From a virus: a stretch of 64,000 bases of DNA. Within the stretch, counting starts at the first letter, position 1. Every line of letters starts with the position of its first letter. The position numbers and the translations under genes were made by a program. The notes below the pieces were generated by a model, which was not told where the DNA came from, ran no database searches, and was given only the letters and a program-made list of their open reading frames with translations. The stretch is from positions 81,863-145,862 of IMG/VR virus record IMGVR_UViG_3300045988_118370, one strand, 5' to 3'. Positions 354-59,674 of the stretch are shown here, piece by piece.

Positions 354-429
354 TGGGGTGACTGACGGAATTCGAATCCGTGACATTCTGAGCCACAATC
401 AGACGCTCTACCAACTGAGCTACAGCCAC
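354..429 (-). tRNA. tRNA-His (anticodon GTG)
   Basis: Revcomp folds as a cloverleaf. Acceptor GTGGCTG/CAGTCAC, anticodon loop TTGTGGC, T-loop TTCGAAT, CCA encoded. Confidence 0.7.
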
Positions 430-430
430 A

Positions 431-518
431 TGGTGCTTTTGGTGAGACTCGAACTCACATGAACTTTACGCCCACTAGATTCTTAGTCTAGCATGTATAC
501 CAATTCCATCACAAAAGC
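431..518 (-). tRNA. class II tRNA (Leu-like); anticodon loop CTAAGAA gives AAG by standard numbering
   Basis: 88 nt. Acceptor GCTTTTG/CAAAAGC, 3-bp D stem, long variable arm, T-arm GTGAG-TTCGAGT-CTCAC, CCA encoded. A34 is unusual. Confidence 0.6.
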
Positions 519-535
519 ATTTTCTTATTTTCATA

Positions 536-570
536 TATTTATTATATAATATTTTTTTTATAAAGTCAAA
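536..570 (-). promoter_or_regulatory. sigma70-type promoter (TTGACT-N17-TATAAT on minus strand) upstream of the tRNA pair
   Basis: Revcomp reads TTGACTTTATAAAAAAAATATTATATAAT. Confidence 0.55.
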
Positions 571-572
571 AG

Positions 573-610
573 GGCCGATGTAAAGTATATTCACTTTACA
601 TCGGCCGTCG
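573..610. terminator. perfect 13-bp-stem hairpin (bidirectional terminator candidate)
   Basis: GGCCGATGTAAAG tatattca CTTTACATCGGCC lies immediately after the stop of the 613..1752 gene. Confidence 0.6.
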
Positions 611-612
611 CG

Positions 613-1752
613 TTAATAAAGATACTGTTCAATAGTGTTTGCGACCTTAGTTAAAACAACAGACTTAATTACGCGCTCATTTTTAGCCTTTTCAATAGCT
701 TCCTTACGCTTTTCAGCATCAGTAATCGTCCAAAAGTCATCAGGATCAATGTAAACTTCAACCTTTTTCGGATCAGCTGTAATCATACCCTTTTCAATCT
801 TAATCGAATCAGGAGTCAAGGCATAACGAATAGTCTTACTATCTGAGGCATAACCATCATACCATCTTTGATGATTGGTATTAGGATTGTTAAACAAATT
901 AACTGAAGCACCATAGGTATTATATACATCACCATTTACCGTAGTAATAGTGATATTGAAACGAACATTGGAAGTCTGAGAGATATTAAGGTCTTCAAGA
1001 GTTTCTGCCACACCATAACCCTGATTAAGTTCAAAAGCAATCGCTCGAAGATAATCATAAGTCATATTAACAGTGCGAGAAAAATTCACAATATCCTTAA
1101 TACCATCTGCGTATTTAGGCTTAACCTTATCAGTCAAATACTCAACGATCTCTTCCTCAGTTGGGAAAGTAATCTTAAAATGATAATGGAAACGACCAGG
1201 TCTATTCAAAAGATAAGTGCTAAGTCGATCAACTTCATTACAAGTAATGACAAAAAGCTTCTTACCATTATCAAGACCATCAAAAAGAGAAAGCATTTCT
1301 TCCTGCGGAGAGGGGCCCGCATGGTCGTCAGAGTTATTAGAGAAATTCTTTTCAAACTCATCAAAAATAATTACGACTTCTTGCTCGATACTGGAAATAA
1401 AATCTGCGATACCAGGCATATAAGTATTAGCCAAAAGGACAGGATATCCGTTTTCAATAGCGTGATGAGAAAGAATACGAGCAAACAATGACTTACCAAT
1501 ACCCTTCTGACCACTTAAAATAACACCAAGATTACGGTCTGAATACTTAAAAGAATTAAGCACCTTATTGACTTTAACTTCGTGATTACCATAAATTTTT
1601 TCCTCATTGACCGCAAGATCTGGACGAGAAGAAAGATAAAAACCTGCCATCTTACTAAAGCAGACTTCAAAAGACATAAGCGGAAGTCGCTTATAAGTCT
1701 TAACGTCCTCGCCATAAATCTGATAGCGAGAACCAGCGTTTACAATATTCAT
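613..1752 (-). CDS. AAA+ family ATPase
   Basis: 379 aa. Walker A GQKGIGKS, Walker B VVIIFDEFE, sensor LLNRPGRF. RBS AAGAGGA 8 nt upstream. TAA stop. Confidence 0.8.
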   Translation of the reverse strand: MNIVNAGSRYQIYGEDVKTYKRLPLMSFEVCFSKMAGFYLSSRPDLAVNEEKIYGNHEVKVNKVLNSFKYSDRNLGVILSGQKGIGKSLFARILSHHAIENGYPVLLANTYMPGIADFISSIEQEVVIIFDEFEKNFSNNSDDHAGPSPQEEMLSLFDGLDNGKKLFVITCNEVDRLSTYLLNRPGRFHYHFKITFPTEEEIVEYLTDKVKPKYADGIKDIVNFSRTVNMTYDYLRAIAFELNQGYGVAETLEDLNISQTSNVRFNITITTVNGDVYNTYGASVNLFNNPNTNHQRWYDGYASDSKTIRYALTPDSIKIEKGMITADPKKVEVYIDPDDFWTITDAEKRKEAIEKAKNERVIKSVVLTKVANTIEQYLY

Positions 1753-1779
1753 ACTTAATCCTCTTAATTTAAAATTTAA

Positions 1780-1870
1780 TGGCGAAGGAGAGAGGATTCG
1801 AACCTCCGGGCCCCAAATGAGGCCAACACCTTAGCAGGGTGCCGCATTCAACCAGCTCTGCCACTCCTTC
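1780..1870 (-). tRNA. tRNA-Ser (anticodon GCT), class II
   Basis: Acceptor GAAGGAG/CTCCTTC, anticodon stem-loop GCACC-CTGCTAA-GGTGT, long variable arm, T-arm GGAGG-TTCGAAT-CCTCT, CCA encoded. Confidence 0.7.
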
Positions 1871-1962
1871 ATAATATATAAATAGAATAATTTACTGCTT
1901 AAACAGATGATATCCTCGTTTAAACCATACCACACCCTCACCCAACGCCTCAATTATTCTAT

Positions 1963-2199
1963 TTATTTACACCTATATATAATTAGCTTAGGCTTAATAC
2001 TATATCCACAATAACTACGCCAAGTGCGATAATTACTAAAAATATAATATTTTCTATCAGGTTTAATATTACCAAATAAATTTAAAACTCTCAGTCCTTG
2101 CTTATAATGAGAAGTTTTATTATTCACTTGATAATTGGCCCAATCAAGAATTTCTTGACCGCTAAAACAAGGATTTTTATAGCTTAAAATATTTTTCAT
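1963..2199 (-). CDS. hypothetical protein (78 aa)
   Basis: ORF with RBS GGAGGTAGGAT before the ATG. TAA stop. Confidence 0.5.
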   Translation of the reverse strand: MKNILSYKNPCFSGQEILDWANYQVNNKTSHYKQGLRVLNLFGNIKPDRKYYIFSNYRTWRSYCGYSIKPKLIIYRCK

Positions 2200-2608
2200 A
2201 TCCTACCTCCTCTGCTTTTCTGGACTTGGAACCAGCCTATGGTAGCATTAGATAGGCGACCGCACTTATCGTTCGCTAGGACAAAACTCGCGCTCATCGC
2301 CAAAGATCAAATCATCAACATCTTTAAACATATCAGACAATCCTCCTTCTTTATTTATTTTTATGAAACAAAATAGAGAGTAGAAAAACAATTCATTTCT
2401 ATGGAAGTGAGAGAAAACAACAATCTATATATCAAACGAAAGGGGAAATCAAACAGAAAGATAAGTAAGAAAATGAACTAGATGTAAAAGACTCTCTCTA
2501 TTGTATAGTCTTTTGTTTCTATATATTTAAATATATAGAAGAGTAGCCTTTCTAACAGGCATCCCAACAGCCTCGAGCAGCAAAGAGGTTCCTCATTTGT
2601 TGGTCTTT

Positions 2609-2684
2609 TGGTGGGCGGAGACAGAATCGAACTGCCGACGCTAGGATCTTCAATCCTACGCTCTACCAACTGAGCTATCCGCCC
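2609..2684 (-). tRNA. tRNA-Phe (anticodon GAA)
   Basis: GGGCGGATAGCTCAGTTGGTAGAGC..., anticodon arm TAGGA-TTGAAGA-TCCTA, T-loop TTCGATT, CCA encoded. Confidence 0.75.
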
Positions 2685-2898
2685 ATAATATTTATATTGC
2701 TACGATTCCCGATTCTCCACGTAGTCATTCTTCCTTTAAAATTGACTAAAAGAATGTGATATTTTATTTATCGTACTACATCAACAATATAAATAGAACA
2801 AGACGCTATAAACAATCTTAAGCATATGTATTTTGTACATTGATGTTTTAAAGTTTGCTGTTAGCGCCTTAATTATTCAAAAAGAAAGGAAAGATAAA

Positions 2899-3102
2899 TT
2901 ATGCGTTTGCGGGTTCCGCGTTCTTCGGTCTGCGGAACTTTACATAACGCTCACCATCATATCGGGACATCCAAATGATTGTGCCATCCTTAAAATGGAA
3001 ATCATAAGTAAAATCTTTATCCTGTTCATCAACCTGATGGCAAAAGCCCTTACCATACTTCTTAGAATAAACCTTGTCGCCGGGCTTAAACTTAAACTTC
3101 AT
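2899..3102 (-). CDS. hypothetical small protein (67 aa)
   Basis: ORF with RBS AAAGGAGATATCTAA before the ATG. TAA stop. Confidence 0.5.
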   Translation of the reverse strand: MKFKFKPGDKVYSKKYGKGFCHQVDEQDKDFTYDFHFKDGTIIWMSRYDGERYVKFRRPKNAEPANA

Positions 3103-3147
3103 TTAGATATCTCCTTTTGGATTATTTTAATTTACAAGACACAAATG

Positions 3148-3219
3148 AAATATTTGTTGGAATTGAACCAACTACAATTTGTTTGACAGACAAATACTCT
3201 ACCAATGAGTTAAAATACT
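3148..3219 (-). tRNA. tRNA-Asp-like (anticodon GTC), AT-rich acceptor, no encoded CCA
   Basis: D arm ACTC-ATTGGTA-GAGT, anticodon arm TTTGT-CTGTCAA-ACAAA, T arm GTTGG-TTCAATT-CCAAC, acceptor AGTATTT/AAATATT. It sits inside a spurious plus-strand ORF. Confidence 0.5.
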
Positions 3220-3300
3220 TTCAATAGAAAATGATTGCTGTGTGTGTCTTTATTACTGTGATACCTCTTAAAAGAGGGCTTACGGCATTACGCCTAATAT

Positions 3301-4080
3301 TTATATGTTTTTCCATTCATCATCAGTGTATAAATTTATAATTTTTTTTGTATTAGGTAAATTATAAGAAATACACCATTTTCTAATGGAATTATCACTT
3401 ACATGATATATATTCGCGATAGAAGTAAAACTTTTATTACGAATCAATTTTTTTAATTTATCACGAGAAGGTCTTTTAATTTTTCGATGTTCTTTAGCAG
3501 AACATTTCTAACATTTTTGACCTTTTCCGCTCCACTCTCCACCACATATAGGACAAACTTTTTTTAAAAGTTTTTTCTCTTCTTCTGGTTTATTTTTATC
3601 AAAACGAGAATAATGTAAAGGATAATTTAATTTTTCATTAAACCAAGTTCTTCCAACATTTATATCTCTAATAGTATCTTTACTAACTTTATATTTTTTA
3701 GCTAATTCCGAATGATTAACTACACCTAACTTATCATTAATTAAAATATTTTGAATATCTTGGACTTCCTAATAATTTAATTTTTGATAAATTACGCGAT
3801 AATCTCCACCTATTGTCTAATTATACTCTGGTTTATAATAATCAATCCAATAAGTTTCTCTACTATTTAGATTATCAATTTCACATTCTTCTAACACTTC
3901 AAATATAAAATTAGAAACACCATATTTTCTGAAACTTTGATATAAGGGATAATTATAGCTTTTACTCTTTTCATCTTGGGAGCTATATATATGATTTTCC
4001 CAACGTTCTGCTATATTTCTTGACTATCCAATATAACAATGATTATTTATTTTATTAGTAATTTTATAAATTCCTATCAT
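3301..4080 (-). CDS. GIY-YIG family homing endonuclease; 4 in-frame TAG codons read as sense
   Basis: N-terminus MIGIYKITNKINNHCYIG(TAG)SRNIAERWENH carries the GIY and YIG motifs. CPICGGEW zinc finger and a C-terminal HTH-like tail. RBS AAGGAG 8 nt upstream. Continuous frame of 259 aa only if TAG is sense. TAA stop. Confidence 0.75.
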
Positions 4081-4163
4081 ATTACCATCTCCTTACACTA
4101 TAATTAAAATTTTATTTAAGATAATTATAATTTTTCGACCTCGAAAGTATTTAGGTGATGATA

Positions 4164-4238
4164 TGGTTGCGGTCGGGCGATTCGAACGCCGTTTTTGGCT
4201 TATGAGGCCAACGAGCTACCTTTGCTCCACCACCGCAA
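4164..4238 (-). tRNA. tRNA with CAT anticodon (Met, fMet or Ile2)
   Basis: Anticodon arm TTGGC-CTCATAA-GCCAA, T-loop TTCGAAT, CCA encoded. One mismatch at acceptor 7-66. Confidence 0.6.
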
Positions 4239-4315
4239 TGGTCGGTCAAATTAGAATCGAACTAATATCCCTTGTCTTATGAGAACAATGCTCTACCAGT
4301 TAAGCTATTGACCGA
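4239..4315 (-). tRNA. second tRNA with CAT anticodon (Met or Ile2)
   Basis: Acceptor TCGGTCA/TGACCGA, D arm AGCTTAACTGGTAGAGC, anticodon arm TTGTT-CTCATAA-GACAA, T-loop TTCGATT, CCA encoded. Confidence 0.65.
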
Positions 4316-4474
4316 AAATAGGATAGATATAATATTCATGACTATTATATCTATTGGACTTTCTAACCTATCGTCCCAAAATTCTTAATAGACCTCATCA
4401 AATGGCCAACTTTTGTAGAGGCTTTTGTGCGACCACCTGCGCACTTACATAGACATAAGAATAATGCCAACATA

Positions 4475-4550
4475 TGGCGACCCCGACGGGTGCCGACCCC
4501 GCTATCTCCAGCGTGACAGGCTGGCGGCTCTGCTGACTGCCCCCAGGGCC
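4475..4550 (-). tRNA. tRNA-Asp (anticodon GTC)
   Basis: Anticodon arm CCAGC-CTGTCAC-GCTGG and T arm GCGGG-GTCGGCA-CCCGT resemble E. coli tRNA-Asp. Acceptor GGCCCTG/CGGGGTC pairs including G-U pairs. CCA encoded. Confidence 0.55.
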
Positions 4551-4553
4551 ATA

Positions 4554-4630
4554 TGGTACTCCCAGCCGGATTCGAACCGGCGACTCCAACGTGAAAGGCT
4601 GGTGACTTAAGTCCGCTTGTCGATGGGAGC
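4554..4630 (-). tRNA. tRNA-Glu (anticodon TTC)
   Basis: Acceptor GCTCCCA/TGGGAGT, anticodon arm CCAGC-CTTTCAC-GTTGG, T arm GCCGG-TTCGAAT-CCGGC, CCA encoded. Long D-loop. Confidence 0.55.
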
Positions 4631-4706
4631 ATATTAAATAGACTATAAAGCCGTCTATTAGGGCAAATAATATTTCAGTTCCTTACTAAAAGCGATAAAA
4701 GTAAGG

Positions 4707-4784
4707 TGGTGGCGCGAAGGGGATTCGAACCCAACTATCGCGAGAGTGAGAATCTCGCATCCTAAACCGTTAGACGACCGCGTC
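4707..4784 (-). tRNA. tRNA-Glu-like (anticodon CTC)
   Basis: Glu-type D arm TC-GTC-TAACGGTTTAG-GAT, anticodon arm CGAGA-TTCTCAC-TCTCG, T-loop TTCGAAT, CCA encoded. One acceptor mismatch and a weak T stem. Confidence 0.5.
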
Positions 4785-4939
4785 ATATTTAAGCACATCT
4801 ATCATAATCTTGATTTTTGTGCTTTTGTTTTCGCTTAAACGAGCCTTTACCTTTCTTCGCAGGAACTTTAAATCCTCTGCGCCGAAACAATTGAAGATAC
4901 TCATTAAGCTCTTCCTTATTCTTTTTCATATAACTTTTA

Positions 4940-5044
4940 TTCACGGTATTCATCCTCATCTTCATAAAGGGAAAGATCCTGATAAGCAGCATATTCATCA
5001 CTCTGAATCTCGCAAGCATAGCTTTCATAGTAATCATTATACAT
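4940..5044 (-). CDS. small acidic peptide (34 aa), uncertain
   Basis: ATG sits 8 nt after RBS AAGGAAGA in the conserved promoter-leader module. Translates MYNDYYESYACEIQSDEYAAYQDL.... The track ORF 4789..5037 in another frame has no RBS. Confidence 0.3.
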
Positions 5045-5060
5045 AATTTAAATCTTCCTT

Positions 5061-5110
5061 TCTTAACTTTCTATAAATATTATAACTTATTTTTTATAAA
5101 ATGTCAAAAG
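5061..5110 (-). promoter_or_regulatory. type-1 early promoter-leader module (TTGACA-N17-TATAAT plus conserved leader with RBS)
   Basis: Revcomp reads TTGACATTTTATAAAAAATAAGTTATAATATTTATAGAAAGTTAAGAAAGGAAG. Near-identical modules recur at about 6770-6830, 7090-7150, 14760-14830, 18590-18650, 19255-19320, 24065-24120, 28085-28150, 30840-30900 and 33735-33790. Variants at 16440-16500, 22050-22110 and 25150-25210 have TTTATT in place of TTGACA. Confidence 0.6.
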
Positions 5111-5223
5111 ATTAAAAGACCAACCAAAAGCGATATTTGTTAACGATGGTCGCCACTCCACCGCCGTCAATATTCACAAACACTTACCATTTTCACACTA
5201 ACCTACTAATTAAAGGAGGTGAC

Positions 5224-5311
5224 TGGTGCTTCGAGAGAGACTTGAACTCTCACCATCCGTTCGGATAATCGGGTTTGAGCCGATCGCGTCTGCCAATTCC
5301 GCCATCAAAGC
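5224..5311 (-). tRNA. tRNA-Leu (anticodon CAA), class II
   Basis: Acceptor GCTTTGA/TCGAAGC, anticodon arm ATCGG-CTCAAAC-CCGAT, long variable arm, T-loop TTCAAGT, CCA encoded. Confidence 0.7.
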
Positions 5312-5332
5312 ATAACTAAGAGGATTTTTAAG

Positions 5333-5462
5333 AAGAATCCTCAAAACTTCTTTCTAATCATCTAATTGGATTTTTAAGAAGAACCCTCAAAACTTCTTTC
5401 TAATCTAACGGAAGTTTTAAGAAGATCTTCCAACTTCTTTCTAATCTTAATCGCACTTTAGG
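5333..5462. repeat. three tandem ~42-bp repeats, each an AAGAAG...CTTCTT hairpin
   Basis: The unit ttttaagaagaaNcctcaaaacttctttctaatc occurs three times head-to-tail, directly upstream (minus sense) of tRNA-Leu(CAA). Confidence 0.7.
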
Positions 5463-5858
5463 GCGGCCGTCCCTTCGCGGCGTCACGATTTGCATAATTT
5501 ACTGTATTACCATTTTATTTTCCGAAAAAGGCTACAAACCAAAATGGGAGTTATTTAAGAATAACTTCTAGACTACGCTAACTGCTCAAATTTTCTCTTC
5601 TTAGTGGGAAAAACTTTCTTAGCGCTGAAACCAAAATCACTATTAGCATTTTGTATATATTATCTTATTGTATATAAGTTTTATTAATATACCTTATCTA
5701 TTATATCATTTAGTATATTGTATTAATGTTTAATTAATAAGATAATATTTCTGGCTGCTTTTATCACCAATCATATAATTGGTTATATTGGGCAATGCTC
5801 CCAAACTTGCGGTTTACTTAACCGCCGTGCTTACTCTTTACACCATATAACCATATAA

Positions 5859-5929
5859 TGGTGGACCTCGTGAGAATCGAACTCACCTGATTTTCTGTGT
5901 GCAAGACAGACGACCACGCCATGCAGTCC
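5859..5929 (-). tRNA. tRNA-like, Ala-type anticodon arm (TGC), shortened D region
   Basis: T arm GTGAG-TTCGATT-CTCAC, acceptor GGACTGC/GAGGTCC (6 of 7 pairs), anticodon arm TCTGT-CTTGCAC-ACAGA, CCA encoded. Only about 10 nt between the acceptor and anticodon stems. Confidence 0.35.
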
Positions 5930-6024
5930 CGAAGCCCGGAATGCGACTTATTTATGTATAGATGGAGTCGCCAACCACCTGCGTTCAAAGTCCGCAAGCC
6001 TTCAACGCATTCCCAGGGAGGGAT

Positions 6025-6101
6025 TGGTGCTGGAGAAAGGACTCGAACCTTCAGATTAATGATCCTAAATCATTCGTCTATGCCAATTCGACTACACCAG
6101 C
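6025..6101 (-). tRNA. class I tRNA with anticodon TAG (reads CUA; Leu-like decoding but not class II)
   Basis: Acceptor GCTGGTG/CTCCAGC, D GTC-GAATTGGCATA-GAC, anticodon arm AATGA-TTTAGGA-TCATT, short variable arm AATCT, T arm GAAGG-TTCGAGT-CCTTT, CCA encoded. Confidence 0.55.
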
Positions 6102-6120
6102 AAATAAAGAGTTTTATAAC

Positions 6121-6215
6121 CCACATCGCGAAGATTCGAACTTCGTCAACCGTTAGGACTCGAACCAACTTTTACTCTTTTGGATTCCCAGAACCCATAG
6201 CCTTGATTAATGTGA
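6121..6215 (-). other. ambiguous tRNA-like segment with two T-loop motifs
   Basis: Perfect T arm CGAAG-TTCGAAT-CTTCG plus a second GGTTCGAGTCC motif 25 nt away. A 5' acceptor candidate CACATTA pairs with CGATGTG, but I could not fold a single clean cloverleaf. Confidence 0.3.
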
Positions 6216-6341
6216 GTATAGCCACTACTTCACAATAAGTTTTACTTCGCTTTCTTATATTTAGTCGGGCGTTTTCCGCAAACCACATACTCTTTCGATC
6301 GGTGGTAGTTTAAACTTACAAAATCCGTGTTAACGCCCCAA

Positions 6342-6418
6342 TGGCGGGAGAGATAGGATTCGAACCTATGACATCTTGTTTAACAGACAAGCGCTCTAAC
6401 CAACTGAGCTACACTCCC
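6342..6418 (-). tRNA. tRNA-Asn (anticodon GTT)
   Basis: GGGAGTGTAGCTCAGTTGGTTAGAGC..., anticodon arm CTTGT-CTGTTAA-ACAAG, T arm ATAGG-TTCGAAT-CCTAT, CCA encoded. Confidence 0.7.
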
Positions 6419-6439
6419 ATAAAAGAAGGACTTTTTAAA

Positions 6440-6500
6440 ATCCTTACTTTATATATTTATTATATTATATTTTTTTTAAAAAATCAACTTTTCTCTTTTA
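6440..6500 (-). promoter_or_regulatory. promoter (TTGATT-N17-TATAAT) for tRNA-Asn; a second consensus promoter at 6530-6570
   Basis: Revcomp reads TTGATTTTTTAAAAAAAATATAATATAAT. Upstream copy reads TTGACATTTTATAAAAAATATTATATAAT. Confidence 0.5.
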
Positions 6501-6571
6501 CCCAAATTTTTTTATTTTCTTTTTTCTTTCTTCATTTTATATAAATATTATATAATATTTTTTATAAAATG

Positions 6572-6754
6572 TCAATAAGGTCTTTGAATTGGCATTAAAT
6601 CATCTTCTGAAAGAAGCCACTTTTCACCATGCTCATCAAGGACTTCAATCTGATAATTTAATACTCGAATGACAGTACATTTAAGATACTGTCTACGATA
6701 ACAACGACCACGATAAGGGACAAAACAATAAGAATTACCAACTTCAATATTCAT
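6572..6754 (-). CDS. hypothetical protein (60 aa)
   Basis: ORF with RBS GAAAGGAGAAAATAAATA before the ATG and its own type-1 promoter at 6770-6830. TGA stop. Confidence 0.5.
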   Translation of the reverse strand: MNIEVGNSYCFVPYRGRCYRRQYLKCTVIRVLNYQIEVLDEHGEKWLLSEDDLMPIQRPY

Positions 6755-6910
6755 TATTTATTTTCTCCTTTCTCAACTTTCTATATATATTATATTATAT
6801 ATTTTTAATAAAATCAAAAAAGTTCTTTTTGTTTAAGTAGATTTAACAAATTTACCACAATTTTAGTCGAAATCAGGAACACCGCGTGAAGGTATTGTGG
6901 ATAGTTCCCG

Positions 6911-6982
6911 CAGGCGCCGTAGGATTCGAACCCACACCTCAAGATTTTGGAGATCCGAATGCGACCGTTACACCAGACGCCT
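6911..6982 (-). tRNA. tRNA-Trp (anticodon CCA), no encoded CCA tail
   Basis: Acceptor AGGCGTC/GGCGCCT (A1-U72), anticodon loop CTCCAAA with a 4-bp stem, T arm GTGGG-TTCGAAT-CCTAC. Confidence 0.5.
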
Positions 6983-7003
6983 ATAAAACAAGACCTTAAC
7001 TTT

Positions 7004-7074
7004 GTCCGGAAAATGGATTTGAACCATTAACTTAATCTTAAATGATTATGACCTAACCTTTAGTCTATTCTGGA
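7004..7074 (-). tRNA. atypical tRNA-like gene with a 6-nt anticodon loop (ATTTAA)
   Basis: Acceptor TCCAGAA/TTCCGGA, D GAC-TAAAGGTTAG-GTC, perfect anticodon stem TAATC/GATTA around loop ATTTAA, T arm AATGG-TTCAAAT-CCATT. No CCA. Confidence 0.4.
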
Positions 7075-7089
7075 AGTTATTTTTGCTGT

Positions 7090-7150: not shown

Positions 7151-7153
7151 TTT

Positions 7154-8470
7154 TTAATTCGTTATTAGTTTCCATGTTGTACTATCTGTTTTTACATATA
7201 CTCTACTGTCAGGATGAGCCATATAATAAGTTAAATATACTGAACTATTTGCTGTACTATCACGATAAGGCTTAACATATATATAATAAGTAGTTCCAGC
7301 AGTAACTTTATAACAAATACCAAAATTAGCTCCAGTACCACCATATTTTTTTGCATAATCATCATCACTAACTAAAATATTAGAAGAAGGCTATCCACTA
7401 CTATTAAGAGAAGTAATATTTGATGTTAAATATCCATAAGTATCTATTGAAGAATTAGAATAAACAATAAAGTCCCCTGAAATAGTAGGAGTAAAAGAAA
7501 AATATCGACAAGTGCTTGGAGATAAAGTCCAAGAAGAGGTATTCTATTTGTTATAAGTAGGAGCAGATATTGACACAGTAGAATAAGCCCAATTTGCTAT
7601 AGACTAAATAGTAATTCTTATATAGCCATTTCCACCATGACCTGTTTCAGATGACCCTGTTGGAGAAATAAATGAAGAATTACCTGCGATAGTTGATGCA
7701 GAAGTTAAATAATAGTTACTATTTAACAAACAACCAGAAGGATAATTAGAAGCAGTGGATGAGGTATATACATAACCAGAACCTCCGCCACCATGATATT
7801 TTGTTCCACCCTGCATATTAGAGAGTGAAACAATTCCACCATACCAGCCGCCTCCTCCAGCTCCATTTATATTATAAGAAGAACTGGATGAATATCCATT
7901 TCCTCCTACTCCAAAGCTATTTCCTGAAGTTTGTGTACTTAGACCTGGACTATTAGACCCTGCTACACTACTGGTGCCCCCACCGGCATCTCCGCTTTCT
8001 GTATTAGATCCCCAAGAGGTAGCTCCGCCTCCGCCGGCGACAATTACACGAGCGTAGAGAGAGTTTGATCCAATACGAATATCAGAAGCTCCTCCACCAC
8101 CACCGCTTCGAGACATAGATCCGGAGACTCCTCCAGTACCGCCTCCATTAAATCCTCCTGTATAATCATTAGCAGAAGAAGAAATACAACCTCCTTTTCC
8201 ACCAGTATATAAATATACCGTTTGAGAGGAAGAAAGAGTTAAAATTCCCGTTGAATATCCACCTTTTCCTCCTATAGCTCCCGAAGAAGCGTCAAAACTA
8301 GAGTTACTATTAGCACCATTTCCTCCCTAAGCCCCCCAACATTCTAATTTATAAGTACCTTTTGGAAGGGCAATATTTTTATAAGTTCCACTATAAGGAC
8401 AATTTAATATATCTCCTGTTTTTAAAGAAGAAGAAGAAGGAATTGAAGAAGTTAAGTCGTAAGTTGCCAT
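7154..8470 (-). CDS. glycine-rich tail-fibre-like protein (paralog 2); 4 in-frame TAG read as sense
   Basis: Continuous 438-aa frame from ATG at 8470 (RBS AAGGAGGAG) to TAA at 7154 when TAG is sense. Motifs YKLECWGA, YLYTGG, GGGGGASDIRIG and GYIRITI are shared with the upstream paralog. Track fragments 7604..8116 and 8452..8670 are pieces of it. Confidence 0.65.
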
Positions 8471-9864
8471 GTAACGTCTCCTCCTTTCCAAGTTGTACTA
8501 TCTGTTTTTATATATATAGCTTTAGTAGGAGCATAAGTATTAGAATTGATTTTTATATTTAAAGGAGATAATACTGTAATACGAATATATCCATTTTGCC
8601 CTCCAGGATTAGTTTTACTATAGCCTATCGTAGTAGAGGCATTTGTTAAATAATAATTATTGTTTAACAAACAGCCAGAAGGATAATTAGAAGCAGTTGA
8701 TGAAGTATATACGTAGCCAGAGCCTCCCCCATTATAAGTTCTATAATCAGCAGAGCTATCACTAACATTAGTAGAAGCACCACCGCCATACCAGCCACCA
8801 CCACCACCACCGGGACCATAATTATAATTGGTAGATCCACTAGCATCAGCACCTTGACCAAAAGATCCATTTGTTCCTGCTTTAGTCTATGTAGCCTTAT
8901 ATTCTTCAACCGCAGAGTTACCCGTCAATCCGCCACCCTATTTAATAGAAGAATTACTTTCTCCCGCGCCACCACCACCACCACCGGCAACAATTACACG
9001 GGCATAAAGAGAGTCTTGACCTACGCGGATATCGGAAGCTCCTCCGCCTCCTCCACCTGATGTGTAAGCAGAAGTATACCATCTAATCCTAGAGCTACCT
9101 CCTCCATTAAATCCACCATTAACTATCTTACCTTTTTCACTATCACTTGAATAACTACCATGCCCCCCGGTGTATAAATAAATAGTGGTAGGAACTGGTA
9201 AAGAAAGAATTCCTATAGAATATCCTCCTGTTCCACCCCAATAACTATTTTTTGAACTCGCAGGAGTATAAGTAGTATTACTTTCCTATTTCTAAATCTA
9301 AAAATAAACTTCTTCATTATCCACGGAATTTGAGCTATCTTTAGTATAAGTCATTACGATAGTAGATCCTGATGATAAAGAATAAGTGCCAGTAGTAGTA
9401 AGAGAACTTGATCCAGAAACCGCATTTAAAACTGTATTTCCTCCAACAGTTAAAGTGACTTTATCATAGCTTGCTTCAGTTTTATAATAATATGAAAATT
9501 TATAAGTCCCCCCAGAAGTACAAGTTAATGTAGTTGTAGCAGTACTTGAATCTATTCCTCCGTTAGTAGCTATCCAGTCATTTCCGTCTTGACGAAAATA
9601 ATAATTTGAATCATTAACAGTAAAATAACTGGTCGCATTATGAGTTCCTATATATATCCATGAAGTTGTTGTTGATGAAGTTAAAGAACCAGAATAACCA
9701 ATTCCGCCATAGCCACCCCAACATTCTAATTGATAATTTCCCGCTGGAAGTTTTACTGGATTTACCGCTCCTGAATAGCTACTATTAATAATATCTCCTG
9801 GAATAAATTTAATAGAAGAATAATCTGTTATAGAAGTTCCAGAAGGATTATAAGTATTTGGCAT
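8452..9864 (-). CDS. glycine-rich tail-fibre-like protein (paralog 1); 5 in-frame TAG, three of them within 6 codons
   Basis: ATG at 9864 with RBS AGGAGGA. The frame continues through F-TAG-I-TAG-K-TAG-E at about 9286-9300 into a Gly-rich region with the same motifs as paralog 2. TAA at 8452. 470 aa if read through, 188 aa if the TAG cluster terminates. Confidence 0.6.
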
Positions 9865-9880
9865 TTAAATTCCTCCTCTA

Positions 9881-10435
9881 TTAAGTGAAATACTAAATCC
9901 AAATATCTCCAACATTTCCGTCTGAAGCGGTGGGAGCAGAAGTGGATACTTTAATATTTCTTAAAATATTATTGTTTAAATAAGAAGAATTAGTAGTGAC
10001 AGATAAATTAGATCCCATAGAACCATTAGTAATCTAAGCTAAGTCTAATCCTGGATTAATGGGTAAAATATAATCACCACTGGATGACCCTAATTGTATC
10101 TATCCGATAAATGCTTCATCTTTATATAGAAAATTTGCTTCTACAGCAGTATTCTAATGCCAACATCCTAATCCATTATTAGAATGTTCTTTTTTAATAT
10201 AATATTGAGTTAATTTTAATGCTCCTAAATTATTTATATTTATTGTTATATTAGTAATTGGATTTGTCGCAACATTATTCATATTTGGAATAAGGCCAAT
10301 AATCATTCCGTCTTTATATTCTTTAATAGATTTTGCGGTTCCTATGTAAGTTAATCCATCAGTAGAAGTAATTGGAATAATTTCTAAACTACCACTTCCA
10401 CTACGCATATGTTCTATTGCTTTTGGAATTGCCAT
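9881..10435 (-). CDS. hypothetical tail-associated protein; 4 in-frame TAG read as sense
   Basis: ATG at 10435 with RBS AAGGAGGT. The frame is open through 4 TAGs to TAA at 9881 (184 aa). Track fragment 10154..10435 is its N-terminus. Confidence 0.5.
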
Positions 10436-10546: not shown

Positions 10547-10554
10547 TCTTTAGA

Positions 10555-10860: not shown

Positions 10861-10872
10861 ATCTAATTCTCC

Positions 10873-51844: not shown

Positions 51845-52010
51845 TTTTTTCTTATAATAATAATAAAATAAAAATAAAGAAATGTCAAGTCGTAGAGTGT
51901 GATTGGGCAAAAGTTATTTGTTTTGTTAAAAAAATTTTTAAATATAAAAAGAAAAAATTTTAAATGAAACTTGACAAAAAAAATTTTTTCGAGTATAATA
52001 TAAATATAGA
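51845..52010. promoter_or_regulatory. divergent promoter pair: leftward TTGACA-N17-TATTAT and rightward TTGACA-N17-TATAAT at the early/late boundary
   Basis: Plus strand: TTGACA 51971-51976, 17-nt spacer, TATAAT 51994-51999, RBS CTGGAGGTAGAAA, ATG 52024. Minus strand: revcomp TTGACATTTCTTTATTTTTATTTTATTAT at about 51855-51890. Confidence 0.6.
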
Positions 52011-52023
52011 CTGGAGGTAGAAA

Positions 52024-53079
52024 ATGATAAAACTTGATTATTCTTTACAAACTCCAGAAGAAAGAAATCAATTAGTCGAACAAATTTTGGCTGATAATCC
52101 AGATCCGCCTGAAAAGTATTTAGAAATTTTAGCAGACTATTTGGTTCTTTGTATGGAGAAACAAGAAAAAAAGGAGAAAAAATTATTAACTGATAATCGT
52201 ATGGCTACAGTTAATAAGCGTGAGACTTCTTTTGAAGGTCTTGTTTCCCAACTCGAAAATGGCGAAGATGGAATTTATAATTTAATTACAGATAATAGAA
52301 ATACAATATTTCAACCACATATTACAATTACAAAAAAAGATTTAGAAGAGATACCAAGTTTAAATTAGTTAAGAGAAGCCATTAATGTTTGGGAGGCTAA
52401 ATTAAAAGTAACAGAAGGCAAAGATGCTTTTGTTATTAAAAAGGCTCTTATTGAAATGCGTAAAGATTAGTATGTTATGAAAAATGCTTATCGTCGTCCA
52501 ATAGTGCCTACAAAATTAACCAGATCAAAGTCTTATATTCCATTAGACGATAAAACATTTATTTTTGATGATGATGGTTTTCCCATTCCTGATGGAATTA
52601 GTTTATTAAGACCTGAAATATGTTCTGCGGTTTTATGTAATTATTCCCGATTAAAGCAAGATAGTTGGGGCGAATATGATAAAGACTTATGGTATTTAAT
52701 GGAGGATTTTGATAAGCTTTGTGATAAAGCTTTAGCTAATTATCCTCTTTATGATAGAATCGTTGAATATAAAATTGATGGTTTACAAAATATTGACATT
52801 CAAGAGAAAATACAAATGGAATTTGGTATTAAACATAGTCTTGAATATATTTCAAGTTTATGGCGTAATAAAATTCCAAAATTAATTGCTTCGACTGCGG
52901 AAGATGAATATTTAGATAATTATTATTTAAATGTTGAAAAAGGTAAATATAAAAAATGTAGTCGTTGTGGTAAAATAAAATTAGCTCATAATAAATATTT
53001 TAGTAAAAATAAAACAAGTAAAGATGGCTTTTATAGTATTTGTAAAAGTTGTCGAAATTCTAAGGTCAAAAAATCTTAA
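52024..53079 (+). CDS. hypothetical late protein (351 aa) with 2 in-frame TAG; C-terminal zinc-ribbon
   Basis: Track fragments 52024..52368 and 52477..53079 are in one frame, joined through TAG 52366 and TAG 52468. CSRCGK...CKSCR at the C-terminus. Confidence 0.6.
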
Positions 53080-53128
53080 TATTGTCCTTTTGTTTATAAT
53101 AAATAATTGAAAGGAGAATTTTTTATTT

Positions 53129-54028
53129 ATGGCTGAAACATATTATTGCGAAAAATGTAATCGCACAATGAATGGCACAGAATTTTATTCATCTAATAAT
53201 TTAGAAAAATATCCTAATGATGGTAAATTTCCTGTGTGCAAAAAATGTATGACAATGCACGTTGATAATTGGAATCCAGATACTTATTTATGGATTTTAC
53301 AAGAAGCGGATGTTCCTTATGTTCCAGATGAATGGAATAAATTAATGGAAAAATATGGACGCGATCCGCAGTCTATGACCGGTATGACAATTCTTGGACG
53401 TTATTTGTCAAAAATGAAACTCAAATAGTTTAAAGATTATCGTTGGAAAGATACAGAATTTTTACAGTAGATGGCAAATAATAAATTAGAGCAAACTATG
53501 AAACGTCAAGGGTATGATGCTCAATAGATTGCAACCGCTATTGAAAAAAGTTCTATCACTATTCCAGAAGGAGAACTAAAAGAGCCGGTTTACGCTCCAC
53601 CACCCAATGCCCCTACGGAAGATTATTTCGCACAATAGAGCGGTGAAGTGGAACAAGAATTAGACTTAACTGATGAAGACCGCACTTATTTAAGACTTAA
53701 ATGGGGCAAAACTTATAAACCTGAAGAATGGGTTAAACTTGAATAGTTATATGAAGAAATGATGGCTTCTTATGATATTCAAGGCGCCGGACATAAAGAT
53801 ACGCTAAAATTAATATGTAAGACATCTTTAAAGGCAAATCAATTGATCGATATTGGTGATATTGAAGGTTTCCAAAAGATGAGCAAAGTATACGATAGCT
53901 TGATGAAGTCTGGTAAATTTACCGCTGCTCAAAACAAAGCAGAATCAGGTGAATTTGTTGATTCAATTGGCGAATTAATTGAATTATGTGAAAAAGAAGG
54001 ATATATTGAAAGATATTATGTTGAATAG
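53129..54028 (+). CDS. hypothetical late protein (299 aa) with 5 in-frame TAG; N-terminal zinc-finger
   Basis: Fragments 53129..53428 and 53759..54028 share one frame with no TAA or TGA between them. CEKCNR...CKKCM. RBS GAAAGGAGAA. Confidence 0.6.
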
Positions 54029-54040
54029 CCACATGATAAA

Positions 54041-54316
54041 GTGGATTTAACTATTCAAGATATGCAACGTTATACTCGCACTCTTATCGAAGATGAAACT
54101 AATATTAGCACAATGGTAGAAAAGGCTTTACGCGAAAATGCTAAAGAAGATGAAGAGAAAGCAAAGAACGCGGAAAGCGATATTGTTGATGATGCTGATT
54201 TAAGTATTGAAGAACTTGAAAAAACTATTAAAGATAGTGATTACGCGGATTTTGAGGAATTTAAAGAATAGGAGTCCGCGCAAGATAATGAGTTCTTATA
54301 GGGTTTAGATAAATAA
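54041..54316 (+). CDS. small acidic protein (91 aa) with 2 in-frame TAG
   Basis: ATG 54041. TAA 54314-54316 overlaps the terL start (TAATG). Confidence 0.45.
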
Positions 54317-56055
54317 TGGCATTACAAGATTTACTGTAGTTAAGTGATAGCCGTAGAAAAATAGGTCTATCACCGGAGCGAGTAGAAGCGGTAATGCCCA
54401 CTATCCGCAAATACGTTGCCTTTTGGAGAGAATATCCTGATTTATTTGTAGATTTTATGGTGCGAGGAAGACGCACTGAAATAAAAGATGGAGAATTTAA
54501 TTTTTATTTTTATTAGAGAGTATTTCTCCGTTCTGTTATGCGTTATTAGTATGTTTACGCGGTTTTTCCTCGTGCTTATTCTAAATCATTTTTGTCTGTT
54601 ATGGCATTAATGATTAGATGTATTTTATATCCTGGCGCACATTTGTTTGTTACTTCTGGAGGTAAAGAGCAAGGTGCTAGTATTCTTCATGATAAAGTTC
54701 AAGAAATATGTGAACTTATTCCAAGCTTTAATCGAGAAATTGATTGGAGTCGAGGAAAAACTCTTGAAGGAAAAGATAAAGTTAGATATGTGTTTAAAAA
54801 TGGTTCAGTTTTGGATAACCTCGCAGCCCGTGAAAGCACTCGTGGTCAGCGTCGTCATGGTGGACTAATGGAAGAATGTGTCGGTATTGATGATGCTATT
54901 CTTCGTGAAGTTATTATTCCTGTTATGGCAATTTCTCGTAGAGCTAAAGATGGCACTACCAATGAACAAGAGCCATTAAACAAATCACAAATCTATATTA
55001 CTACTGCTGGTTATAAGGGCACATTCCCTTATGATAGACTTATTGGTTTCTTAGTTCGTATGGTGACTTAGCCCGATCGTTGTATGGTATTAGGTGGAAC
55101 ATGGCGAACTCCTGTTGCGGTAGGATTACAAAGTAAAACATTTATTACTGACCAAAAGAATGAAGGAACTTATAATGAAGCTTCATTCGAACGTGAATAT
55201 GAATCTAAGTGGTCAGGAACTGTTGAGGATGCTTTCTTTAATGGAGAGCATTTTGATAGAAATAGAAAATTATTATAGCCTGAGTATGAAGCTTCTGGAC
55301 GGGCGGGCGCACAAGCTTATTATGTACTTTCTGTAGATGTAGGTCGTAAAGGATGCGATTCAGTAGTTTGTGTATTTAAAGTAACACCACAAGCCCAAGG
55401 TCCAGCTATTAAGTCTTTAGTAAATATGTATACTATGTCAGATGATCATTTTGAAGATTAGGCTATTAAATTAAAGAAATTATTTTATAAATATAAAGCT
55501 AAAACTTTAGTTATAGATGGTAATGGTTTAGGTATTGGACTTTTGGATTATATGGTAAAATCTCAAAATGATGAAGATGGTGAATTTTTACCTGATTTTG
55601 GTGTTGAGAATGATGATGATGGATATTATAAAAAATATCGCACACCAAATACTCAATTTGATGCTATGTATGTTATTAAAGCAAATGCTCCAATAAATAC
55701 TGAATGTCATGCTAATGCTTAGACTCAGTTACAAGCGGGTAAGGTAAAATTCTTAATAGATGAGAGAACAGCTAAAGAAAAATTATTAGCTACTCAAAAA
55801 GGTTCAAAAATGACTCCTGAACAAAGGGCAGATTATTTAAAACCATTTACTTTAACCTCCATATTAAAAGAAGAAATGATGAATTTACGCGAAGAAAATG
55901 AAGGTATTAATATTATTTTAAAATAGGCAAATCGCGGAATTCGTAAAGATAAATTTTCGGCTTTTGAATATGGATTATATTATTTAAAACTTGAAGAAGA
56001 TAAAAAGAAAAAACGTAAAAAGTTTAATGCGGCTGATTGGTGCTTTTTAAATTAA
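54316..56055 (+). CDS. terL: terminase large subunit (579 aa) with 8 in-frame TAG
   Basis: Single frame 54316 to TAA 56053-56055 once TAG is sense; track fragments 54592..55071 and 55084..55278 are in it. ATPase-like FVTSGGKEQGAS and GGLMEECVGID. Nuclease-domain motifs VLSVDVGRKG and LVIDGNGLGIG. Position is just upstream of the putative portal. Confidence 0.7.
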
Positions 56056-56067
56056 GGAGGGTGGAAA

Positions 56068-56424
56068 GTGCGTGCTTCAAGAGGAGAAATTAAAATTGAA
56101 GAAATCTTAGAAGAAGCAGGACTACCTTTTAAAATGGAATACATCTTTCCAGATTTAAAAAGCCCAAGCGGGCGTCCGCTTCGTTTTGATTTTGTTATAT
56201 TTGATGATGATGGAAAAATTGATTTCATTATTGAGTATTAGGGAAAATAGCATTATGAAGCCAGTTCTAAATTTGGTGGAAAGCGCGGTTTATACCAGTA
56301 GCAATATAATGATAATCAAAAAAGACGTTTTTGCGCTTTACATGATTTTAGATTAATAGAGATTCCATATACCGACGAAAACCTTATTTCTTATGATTAT
56401 ATAATGAAATTAGCAGGTTATTAA
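56068..56424 (+). CDS. putative PD-(D/E)xK-type endonuclease-like protein (118 aa) with 3 in-frame TAG; GTG start
   Basis: RBS AAGGAGGGTGGAAA before GTG. Candidate catalytic motif RFDFVIFDDDGKIDFIIEY(TAG)GK(TAG)HY. Wedged between terL and the putative portal. Confidence 0.4.
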
Positions 56425-56437
56425 AGGAGGTGGAACT

Positions 56438-58087
56438 TTGGATACGCAAGATCGTAATGAATAGATTCATGCTAAAGGTTTTGATATTTATAATAGTCGT
56501 TATGAATATAATTACAATGATACTATGGATTATGCTAATAGAAAAATAAAAGTTGGCACAAAAACTTTAGATGATGCTATTTTAAAACTTGGTGATTATA
56601 GTAAGATTAGATACCCAGGTCAAACTCGTATTATCACGAAACCCGATGTGCTTCGCGCACTAGCAGAAAGAGATTTAAATGCTTTGCGATATATTTCTAA
56701 TTTTTATTATGATATAAGTGGTGTATATCAACGAGTTTGTAATTATGTTGCTTTTTTATACCGCTATGACTGGTATATCGCGGCTGAGACTTATGATGAT
56801 AGTGTAAAAGAAGAAAAAGTTTTAAAAGATTTTTATAGAATGTTGAATTATTTTGATAATAGTTATATTAAAAAGATTTGTGGAGATATTGCTTTACAAG
56901 TTGTTAAAAATGGATGCTATTATGGATATATAGTTCCTTCAGAGAAAAATCTAATTTTACAAGAATTACCAGTTAGATATTGTAGAACACGTTATAGTGT
57001 AAATAATACCCCAGTTGTTGAATTTGATATGCGATTTTTTGATACTTTTAGAGATATGAATTATCGTTTAAAAGTATTAAAATTATTTCCAGAAGAATTT
57101 GCTAAAGGTTATGTTCTATATAAACAAGGAAAACTTGCTTTAGAAGAGGCAGTTGGATGCTAGCATACTGGTAGTTGGTATGTTCTTGAACCAGAAAATT
57201 GTGTTAAATTTAATATTAATAATAGTGATGTTCCTATTTTTGTAAATTCGATTCCTACTATTATGGATTTAGATGCGGCGCAAGATCTTGATCGCAAGAA
57301 ACAAATGTAGAAGTTACTTAAAATTTTAGTCCAAAAGCTCCCAATGGATAAAAATGGTGATTTGATATTTGATGTTGATGAAGCCAGAGATATCCATAAT
57401 AATGCCGTTTAGATGTTATAGAGGGCTATTGGAGTAGATGTTTTAACTACATTTACTGACGTAGATTCTATTGATATGTCTGATAAGAATACTACTACAA
57501 CGACAGATGATTTAGCTAAAGTTGAACGTAGTGTTTATAATTCATTAGGTATTTCATAGAATTTATTTAATACTGATGGTAATATGGCTTTAGAAAAATC
57601 AGTATTAAATGATGAATCTACAATAAGAAGTTTAATTTTATAGTTTAATATATTTTTTAATAGAATTATTGAAAAAAAGAGTAGTAATAAGAAATATAAT
57701 TTTAGATTTTATTTATTAGAAACTACTTAGAATAATTATCAAACACTTTCTAAAATGTATAAAGAACAAGCGCAAATGGGACAATCAAAGTTATTGTCTT
57801 AGATTGCTCTTGGACATTCGTAGAGTTTTATTCTTAATGCAGCTCATTTTGAAAATGAGATTTTACATTTAAGTGAAATTATGATTCCTCCTCTTATGAG
57901 TTCTACTATGGGTAGTGAAGATATTTTGGGTTTAAAAGGTTCATCATCTAATAATAAAACTCAAAATAATTCAGGAAGCTCAGGTTCTGGAACTGCTAAA
58001 GCTTCTAATGGTGAGGCAGGACGTCCGGAAAAACCTGACGATTAGAAAAGTGAAAAAACTATTCAAAATAAAGAAGCAATGAAATAA
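56438..58087 (+). CDS. putative portal protein (549 aa) with about 11 in-frame TAG
   Basis: RBS AAAGGAGGTGGAACT before TTG 56438. One frame, containing track fragment 56525..57163, to TAA 58085-58087. Called from size and position after terL. Confidence 0.5.
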
Positions 58088-58096
58088 GGAGGATTT

Positions 58097-59674
58097 ATGA
58101 AACATACAAGTATTAAATTAAATACACCTTGTGAGTTTATAAATATAACTCCTGTAAATCCTTTAATTTCTAAATGCCAAATTAAGGTTTGCTATGTAGA
58201 TGATAAACCTAATCGCAATAAAAGCGTAATTACTAAAGACGTAGCAACTGAGATGGCTAATAGCCTTCCTGGTAGTCCTATTGTTGGTTTTTTTAATGAA
58301 AATACCGAAGATTTTGAAGAACATAATAGGATAATTGAATTATCTAATGGCGAATTTAGAATGAAAGATAATACTCGCCCTTATGGTTTTGTTGATCTTG
58401 GAGCTAGAGTTTGGTTTTAGAAATTTTTGGATGATGGTGTTGTCGAACGTGAATATTTAATGACTGAAGGTTATTTGTGGACTGGTTAGTATCCTGAATG
58501 TAAACGTGTAGTTAATAAAGGAAATAATCATTCTATGGAGCTTGATGAAAAAACATTAAATGCTACGTGGGCAAAAGATAGCAATGGAAAACCTTAGTTT
58601 TTTATTATAAATAAGGCAATTATTTCTAAACTTTGTATTTTGGGAGAAGAAAATGAACCTTGTTTCGAAGGCTCCCAAATCAATGTGAATTTTTCATTCG
58701 ATGATGGTTTTAAGAACACTTTGTTCTCCATGATGAATGAACTTAAAGAATTTATGAAAGAAGGAGGAGCCAAAGTGTTTACACAATACGCTGTTAATAT
58801 TGGCGACAATTTGTGGAATTCTCTTTATTCTTATATTGAGAATAAGTATCCTGTCGAACCAAAGAATTATTGTTCTGTTTATCGCATTGAAGGCGTTTGC
58901 GAAGATGGTGAACAAAAGTTTGCTGTTTTGAAGAATAAGCAAGATGAAAAATACTATCGTATGGATTTTTCTCTTGAAGCAGAGAATTTCGTTCCTTCTG
59001 ATACTTTAATTGAAGTAACTGATTATGCTCCTGCGGCCGAGCCTCAGTTTGCTCTTAATGCTGTAGAAGAATTTGAAAATGAGTATGCTTCAAAAAAGAA
59101 AGCAGAAGAGGACAAAAATAATAAATCAAATAATCCTGACGGTGAAAATAAATCAGAGGGTAATGATAATAAAAAGAACCCTGATAATGGAGATCCCTCT
59201 AATAAGTCTGATAAAGGCGACAACGGTGAGAATGATGATGATAAAAAGAAAAAGAAAAATTATTCTCTTGAGGATGTTGTTGAATATACTGAACTTAAAG
59301 CTCAGTATGATGAATTACAGACTAAATTCGCGGCTCTTGAAACTGAAAATAATAGCTTGAAAGAGCAAATTGCTCCACTTGCTGAATTTAAAAATGCCGC
59401 TGAAAAGAAAGATAAAGAAGATATGATTGCTAAATTCTATATGCTTTCTGATGAAGATAAGGCTGATGTTGTTGAAAATATTGATAAATATTCTCTTGAT
59501 GATATTGAAGCTAAATTATCTGTTATTTGTGTTCGCAACAAGGTGAGTTTCGACCTTGACGAAAATAATAAGCCCAATGGTGCTACTACTTTTAATTTGA
59601 ACGATAATGGTTCAGAAGATGATGATATGCCCGCTTGGGTGAAGGCGGCTTTTGCTACCGCCAACAAAAATTAA
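58097..59674 (+). CDS. putative scaffold (possibly protease-scaffold fusion) protein with 3 in-frame TAG
   Basis: Fragments 58097..58420 and 58640..59674 are in one frame. Long acidic and coiled-coil low-complexity C-terminal half. Located between the putative portal and the capsid genes. Confidence 0.5.

Follow-up and report, generated by a model that had tools for sequence, protein, structure and literature searches.

TAG codons clustered in a glycine-rich-domain gene of a large gut phage are very probably ordinary glutamine codons

Three TAG triplets lie within five codons in a gene of an uncultivated virus, and the question they raise is whether they act as stops that are read through under regulation, as scars of a decaying gene, or simply as sense codons. 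The gene, here called g1, lies in a stretch of 64,000 nucleotides (positions 81,863 to 145,862 of the IMG/VR virus record IMGVR_UViG_3300045988_118370), which was analysed as a whole and is referred to as the 64-kb window. Its gene set is a rough one of 94 open reading frames (ORFs), with only TAA and TGA taken as stops. On the minus strand, positions 9309-9283 read GTT TAT TTT TAG ATT TAG AAA TAG GAA, followed by the codon AGT, which gives V-Y-F-TAG-I-TAG-K-TAG-E-S. The original prediction for this locus had noted F-TAG-I-TAG-K-TAG-E at about 9286-9300, and the minus-strand reading bears this out. It had gone on to interpret the cluster as a possible regulated read-through junction at a domain boundary. 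The evidence presented here makes it very probable that TAG is reassigned to glutamine throughout the genome of a large gut phage (genetic code 15), and that the three codons are ordinary glutamine codons. The two features on which the argument turns are the following.

Positions 8452..9864, minus strand: g1, 470 amino acids (aa) with TAG read as glutamine; glycine-rich-domain protein with an inserted beta-sandwich, putatively receptor-binding or tail-fibre-like.
Positions 9286..9300, minus strand: the TAG cluster, TAG-ATT-TAG-AAA-TAG, corresponding to Gln189-Ile190-Gln191-Lys192-Gln193 of the 470-aa protein.

The g1 gene starts at an ATG (9864-9862) preceded by an AGGAGG ribosome-binding site, and the three TAGs of the cluster (9300-9298, 9294-9292 and 9288-9286) are in frame with it. 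Under the standard code the ORF spans 9298..9864 on the minus strand (188 aa), and the region as a whole falls into fragments of 188, 81 and 72 aa plus one gap that lacks a start codon. With TAG as a sense codon the frame is open to a TAA at 8454-8452 and holds five in-frame TAGs, at residues 189, 191, 193, 309 (8940-8938) and 326 (8889-8887). There is no in-frame ATG, GTG or TTG between residues 190 and 312, in agreement with the earlier claim that the sequence downstream of the cluster continues in the same frame without a start of its own. More than 100 public homologues of about 470 aa are all unbroken across the cluster site, so that the comparison with orthologues which had been proposed as a check yields a continuous frame in every case; public gene calls on contigs of 193-195 kb likewise give a single 470-aa gene, followed by a 438-aa gene. 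Ratios of non-synonymous to synonymous substitution rates (dN/dS) for residues 194-470 are 0.08-0.17 in 12 of 12 pairwise comparisons with relatives, and the part of the gene after the cluster is therefore clearly translated in the g1 frame. For residues 1-188 the ratios are 0.08-0.28 in 11 of the 12 relatives, the twelfth pair being almost without divergence. The interval 9864..8452 on the minus strand thus makes one 470-aa protein, and its tryptic peptides over the cluster, with TAG read as Q, are DSSNSVDNEEVYFQIQK (containing Q189 and Q191) and QESNTTYTPASSK (containing Q193).

The amino acid that TAG specifies is indicated by the codons that take its place in relatives. DNA of relatives was retrieved, and the codons aligned to TAG sites were counted site by site. 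The metagenome scan was queried with peptide patterns in which each Q had been back-translated as CAA or CAG, and this biases against loci with TAG at those places; the proportions of TAG and CAA among relatives are accordingly indicative only and are not population frequencies. For g1, the comparison covered 12 close relatives with proteins 89-95% identical to it.

g1 residue 189: TAG in the window; TAG in 12 relatives, CAA in 0.
g1 residue 191: TAG in the window; TAG in 8 relatives, CAA in 4.
g1 residue 193: TAG in the window; TAG in 9 relatives, CAA in 3.
g1 residue 309: TAG in the window; TAG in 5 relatives, CAA in 7.
g1 residue 326: TAG in the window; TAG in 12 relatives, CAA in 0.
g1 residue 337: CAA in the window; TAG in 5 relatives, CAA in 7.

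TAG and CAA thus interchange among close relatives. Q326 is invariant across an alignment of 37 sequences, and in most of the aligning relatives that have no in-frame TAG its codon is CAA or CAG. The same holds for other genes of the window. In g2, the paralogue that follows g1, 51 of the 53 relatives that lack in-frame TAG have CAA (32) or CAG (19) opposite the TAG at residue 48 (ECWGA-Q-GG). In the large terminase, every one of 80 relatives has TAG, CAA or CAG at sites 67 and 382; at site 469 this holds for 77 of 80 and at site 537 for 76 of 78. These counterparts, taken with the low dN/dS downstream of the cluster, uphold the part of the prediction which held the TAGs to be recoded and not terminating. 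The terminase genes of relatives at 68-72% identity are often entirely free of TAG, and the code change therefore arose within the clade of the window phage. The TAG sites themselves would be descended from CAG or CAA glutamine codons; CAG becomes TAG by a single C-to-T change.

Across terminase genes that are 68-77% identical (L115-L164), the number of in-frame TAGs ranges from 0 to 9. Standard-code and TAG-recoded phages therefore coexist in the clade.

The use of TAG as a sense codon extends well beyond g1. In-frame TAGs are found in about 36 of the 94 rough ORFs, with 103 TAGs in total, and the ORFs that bear them form blocks at 3301-4092 (minus strand), 7154-10435 (minus strand), 51964-59674 (plus strand) and 62433-64000 (plus strand). 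The most informative of these encodes late and packaging functions.

Positions 51964..59674, plus strand: late/packaging block with TAG as sense codon, comprising a sigma factor, a phrog_3314 protein, the large terminase, the portal and a phrog_3313 protein.

Within this block the sigma factor gene has three TAGs, the phrog_3314 gene eight, the large terminase gene eight, the portal gene ten (in its ATG-trimmed form) and the phrog_3313 gene three. Once TAG is read as Q, g1, g2, the terminase and the portal are full-length matches to their families. The early minus-strand block at 10.5-51.7 kb is essentially without in-frame TAG, and its ORFs terminate in TAA (28), TGA (9) and TAG (1). In this window, recoding is thus biased to late and structural genes, with early genes free of TAG and TAG avoided as a terminator. 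Codon counts follow the same division. In 11 confidently recoded genes, the 152 glutamine-type codons comprise 58 TAG, 84 CAA and 10 CAG; in TAG-free genes there are 0 TAG, 94 CAA and 136 CAG, so that CAG is there commoner than CAA. This suggests that CAG has been replaced wholesale by TAG in the recoded genes.

The change in glutamine codon use can be seen as a flip between the early genes at 10555-51000 (minus strand) and the genes at 51964-59674 (plus strand). Two adjoining genes of 305 and 368 aa at 59692-61733 (plus strand; phrog_35301 and phrog_4088, function not assigned) lie within the recoded structural block, have no TAG and are rich in CAG (18 CAG vs 8 CAA); they may encode highly expressed virion proteins that avoid TAG.

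Where the cluster falls within the g1 protein bears directly on whether it could separate two products. The profile of Pfam family PF12810 (ALK_LTK_GRD) is matched well above its gathering threshold of 24.5 bits by both g1 (119.5 bits) and g2 (156 bits). The match in g2 runs from residue 32 to 288 (profile positions 2-242) and begins inside its first glycine-rich segment. In g1 the match is confined to residues 205-432 (profile positions 24-243), and the first approximately 23 profile positions, which are unmatched there, correspond to residues 23-56, upstream of the TAG cluster. Three parts can therefore be set out for g1.

Positions 9697..9798, minus strand: first glycine-rich segment, residues 23-56 (GDIINSSYSGAVNPVKLPAGNYQLECWGGYGG), matching residues 19-52 of the paralogue by BLASTP (E = 2e-9).
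Positions 9250..9696, minus strand: inserted beta-sandwich, residues 57-205, about 150 aa, with the TAG cluster in its last strand.
Positions 8569..9252, minus strand: rest of the glycine-rich domain, residues 205-432 (Pfam E = 3.2e-34), holding TAG309 and TAG326.

Since the profile is split around the cluster, the glycine-rich domain begins upstream of it, breaks for about 150 residues and then resumes. The insert is present neither in the paralogue g2 nor at the same position of another homologue (P0105). An AlphaFold2 model was made on the homologue P0001, which is 97% identical to g1, and has a mean predicted local distance difference test score (pLDDT) of 91.2, with 87-96 in the insert block. 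In this model a long strand (residues 56-72) enters the insert and a continuous strand (residues 185-201) leaves it. Gln189, Gln191 and Gln193 occupy alternate positions of the latter (V-Y-F-Q-I-Q-K-Q-E), at pLDDT of about 89-92. Among homologues the three cluster positions are filled by Q, I, T, K, E, S, A or L, and Ile190, which lies between the first two of them, hardly varies; a beta-strand of which one face is variable shows this pattern. Profile coordinates and secondary structure, as distinct from contacts, suggest that the strands 56-72 and 185-201 pair with each other, and also that residues 23-56 pack on the C-terminal glycine-rich part. On the model, then, the cluster is placed inside one predicted beta-strand and not, as had been claimed, at a domain boundary; the glycine-rich residues 23-56 lie upstream of it. 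The 188-aa module that had been postulated would not be self-contained either. A product ending at F188 would consist of a cut beta-sandwich and an orphan glycine-rich piece, and with a domain split and a strand severed, a functional short isoform is unlikely.

In Foldseek searches of the PDB with the AlphaFold2 model, structures of the ALK and LTK glycine-rich domains came top, with a low overall template modelling (TM) score to ALK of 0.22-0.37. Both g1 and g2 match this domain in profile, and the model of the g1 homologue has it as its top PDB fold match; g1 differs in that its domain is broken after approximately 23 profile positions by the insert of about 150 aa. The insert itself gave weak matches to the carbohydrate-binding modules (CBMs) CBM29, CBM35 and CBM36 (E about 1e-2, target TM 0.4-0.47). 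PHROG searches with g1, g2 and the upstream gene g0 returned only families of unassigned function or no match. Glycine-rich domains of the ALK/LTK type (PF12810) are common in phage tail-fibre-like proteins. Because such domains are frequent in phage fibre proteins and the insert is CBM-like, the label tail-fibre-like is applied to g1, and a tail-fibre or receptor-binding function appears plausible for it.

How unusual the cluster is depends on how TAG is counted. The TAGNNNTAGNNNTAG motif occurs in 8 copies in the window, against 0.36 expected, and the flagged copy is the only one in the frame of an assignable gene (two others were checked by eye); the copy at 9083-9097 is out of frame. TAG makes up 38% of the glutamine-type codons in the 11 confidently recoded genes, so that the probability of a Q-x-Q-x-Q peptide being written entirely with TAG by chance is about 0.056. 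All three cluster codons are TAG in 5 of the 12 close relatives, and two of them are TAG in the other 7. The cluster is real, yet it is no statistical anomaly once TAG is counted as a glutamine codon. Elsewhere in the window, three overlapping copies of TAGNNNTAGNNNTAG at 38254-38280 (plus strand) run opposite to the coding strand of ORF 37898-38278 (minus strand), where they would match repeated CTA- and CTT-containing codons.

These results can be held against the proposal that the cluster is a junction-specific device, making a functional 188-aa protein and a C-terminally extended isoform in a ratio tuned by the level of suppressor. A continuous frame without an internal start would be expected of such a device; residue 189, moreover, is TAG in all 12 close relatives, and three TAGs within five codons have a chance of about 5.6% given the peptide Q-x-Q-x-Q. 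However, TAG also stands at residues 309 and 326 and in about 35 other ORFs, and two of the three cluster TAGs are CAA in some close relatives. In distant orthologues all three positions hold other sense residues (I, E, K, S, A or L), and hence the stop is not conserved as a stop. The 188-aa product would comprise the first glycine-rich segment and a beta-sandwich cut in its exit strand (185-201), and the RNA around the cluster (131 nt, the cluster plus about 110 nt downstream) folds no better than shuffled sequences (z = -0.94). Programmed read-through of the known kind, as in the Q-beta A1 protein or at the retroviral gag-pol UAG, relies on a single leaky stop that closes a complete protein, and both of its products are functional; such stops are conserved as stops, often with a stimulatory context. 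The g1 cluster resembles these systems in that an in-frame stop triplet would be decoded by a tRNA and the same frame continues. It differs from them in that TAG is here a general sense codon, exchanges with CAA and lies inside a predicted beta-strand, where truncation would leave an incomplete fold. With about 36 ORFs using TAG as sense, and with TAG and CAA interchanged at the cluster itself, regulated local read-through is not sustained; it is already largely refuted, and we regard it as highly improbable. More improbable still, to the point of being negligible, is that g1 is a pseudogene with accumulated nonsense mutations. The standard-code picture of three short fragments and a gap without a start would suit a decaying gene, but purifying selection is strong both before and after the cluster (dN/dS about 0.1), there are hundreds of full-length homologues, the same pattern of TAGs is found in the essential terminase and portal genes, and the structure is predicted with confidence. 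The selection and conservation data already refute this explanation.

Reassignment of TAG to glutamine calls for a tRNA to decode it, and the prediction had made the products of the locus dependent on suppressor activity. A public 193-kb contig (L081) matches positions 1-11752 of the window at 99.5% identity and runs past the left edge of the window, and in it the tRNA array that flanks g2 continues beyond window position 1. At L081:15957-16046, 4.2 kb beyond the window edge, it carries a tRNA with the anticodon CUA (loop CUCUAAA; 57.8 bits to the Rfam tRNA family). This tRNA has a U1·U72 mismatch, G2-C71, G10 and G73, features which we take to recall the identity elements of Escherichia coli tRNA-Gln. 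It is the codon evidence, and not the tRNA sequence, that leads us to infer charging with glutamine.

Several points weigh against the reassignment as set out here. No tRNA with a CUA anticodon is found inside the 64-kb window, and the suppressor tRNA of the window phage is presumably the one seen in the near-identical contig L081. The L081 tRNA is also atypical for a tRNA-Gln in its length of 90 nt, about 21 nt of which make up the variable region. Finally, residue 189 is TAG in every one of the 12 close relatives; this fixation fits shared ancestry, and selection keeping TAG there is possible. The form of the tRNA might suggest that TAG is a sense codon for another amino acid, such as tyrosine, serine or leucine, decoded by a derivative of a tRNA with a long variable arm: a variable region of this length is as in class II tRNAs, and a 90-nt tRNA-Tyr is located only 600 nt from the CUA tRNA in L081. 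Yet the conserved sites (g1 326, g2 48, and terminase 67 and 382) alternate with CAA or CAG and never with Tyr, Ser or Leu codons, and it is CAG in particular that is depleted in the genes using TAG. In two other gut phages with recoded TAG, both crAss-like, metaproteomics found glutamine at TAG (PMC9523058). A different amino acid at these codons is accordingly very improbable.

Under reassignment to glutamine, the three TAGs at 9300-9286 would be read as Q189, Q191 and Q193 on the strand that leaves the CBM-like insert, by a phage-encoded tRNA with a CUA anticodon. Any regulatory effect would be a general one and not a junction-specific device: late genes with TAG would stay incomplete until the suppressor tRNA is active. 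A genome-wide role in timing, exerted by the suppressor on recoded late genes, has been proposed before (bioRxiv 10.1101/2021.08.26.457843), and recoding may have such a role in the window phage. Of the suppressor dependence that had been predicted, the reliance of decoding on a suppressor tRNA stands; the control of a short-to-long ratio does not, except in the form of this late-gene timing. There is a slim chance that the triple TAG acts as an extra-tight translational lock on the putative receptor-binding protein, or that an early 188-aa fragment has a role of its own. Nothing in the evidence demands either, and the conservation of TAG189 is compatible with them.

Reassignment of TAG to glutamine (code 15) is known in gut phages of the crAss-like, Lak and 'gemstone' clades, in which a bias to late genes has also been described (bioRxiv 10.1101/2021.08.26.457843). 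The window phage is like them in that it uses TAG mainly in structural and packaging genes and keeps the standard code in early genes, in that its TAG sites align with glutamine codons of relatives, and in that a phage-encoded CUA tRNA is at hand, such suppressor tRNAs being frequent in code-15 phages, though not universal according to the literature. It is unlike them in the unusually long variable region of this tRNA. Of the TAG-recoded phages that the phage collection names, phAss-1, of the proposed Phassvirus group from the human gut (PMC10607447), is nearest. The relationship is a distant one, with 44.7% identity between the terminases over 90% of the query; phAss-1 has tRNA-Sup(CTA) genes and is interrupted by TAG in its genes for terminase, portal and tail fibre (PMC10607447). 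Its genome, however, is 136 kb in size, as opposed to about 190 kb here, and its tail fibre has pectate-lyase domains in place of a glycine-rich domain (PMC10607447).

The source of the window is an uncultivated phage of approximately 190 kb with TAG reassigned to glutamine in late, structural and packaging genes. A blastn comparison of a 6-kb region with an annotated phage collection found no match. Among cultivated phages the terminase is closest to those of Enterococcus and Geobacillus phages (46-47% identity), which hints at a possible Firmicutes host. The recoding is of a known kind, found in one further lineage of large gut phages, and reveals no new mechanism. Its main value is for annotation: under the standard code g1 and its neighbours are shattered, which can mislead annotators into calling a 'read-through junction' or a 'pseudogene'. 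With code 15, g1 regains its full length as a 470-aa protein with a glycine-rich domain and a CBM-like insert, a plausible receptor-binding protein, and the whole contig is to be flagged for re-annotation with TAG as glutamine.

The neighbours of g1 share its codon usage, and together g0, g1 and g2 make up a small TAG-recoded island.

Positions 7154..8470, minus strand: g2, the paralogue of g1, 438 aa; its N-terminal glycine-rich domain is unbroken.
Positions 9881..10435, minus strand: g0, the gene upstream of g1, 184 aa, with four in-frame TAGs.
Positions 354..7074, minus strand: tRNA array of 15 tRNA genes and one doubtful tRNA-like element.

The g2 gene is supplied with a GGAGGAG ribosome-binding site and an ATG of its own; it shares 19 nt with the end of g1 and contains four in-frame TAGs, at residues 48, 289, 309 and 360. 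The glycine-rich part of g1 is 47% identical to it over 260 aa, which confirms that the module is repeated in 7154..8470. For g0, no family was matched in Pfam or PHROG.

Inside the tRNA array, a gene for a GIY-YIG endonuclease at 3301-4080 (minus strand), assigned Pfam PF01541 in a public gene call, has four in-frame TAGs, one of them in its YIG-q-S motif. Just downstream of g2, ARAGORN reports a tRNA-like element at 7004-7074 (minus strand; L081:4679-4749) with a 6-nt anticodon loop and no anticodon called. In the window the loop is AUUUAA, and in L081, the contig of 99.5% identity, it is CUUCAA. It was considered as a suppressor and rejected on account of the 6-nt anticodon loop, a score below the Rfam tRNA threshold and the different loop in L081; it may be a decaying or non-canonical tRNA. 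Two further tRNAs of L081, at 12967-13041 (46 bits) and 14626-14709 (35 bits), are recognised by Rfam and were missed by ARAGORN. The anticodon loop of the former, CCUCUAA, could be read as UCU (Arg) with an unusual C33 or as a shifted CUA. Farther along L081, beyond the window, two consecutive 415-aa proteins with Pfam Mtd_N domains are encoded at 19127-21140, a domain of the kind found in proteins that diversity-generating retroelements target, and a protein with Flg_new repeats is encoded near this pair, at 17227-18720.

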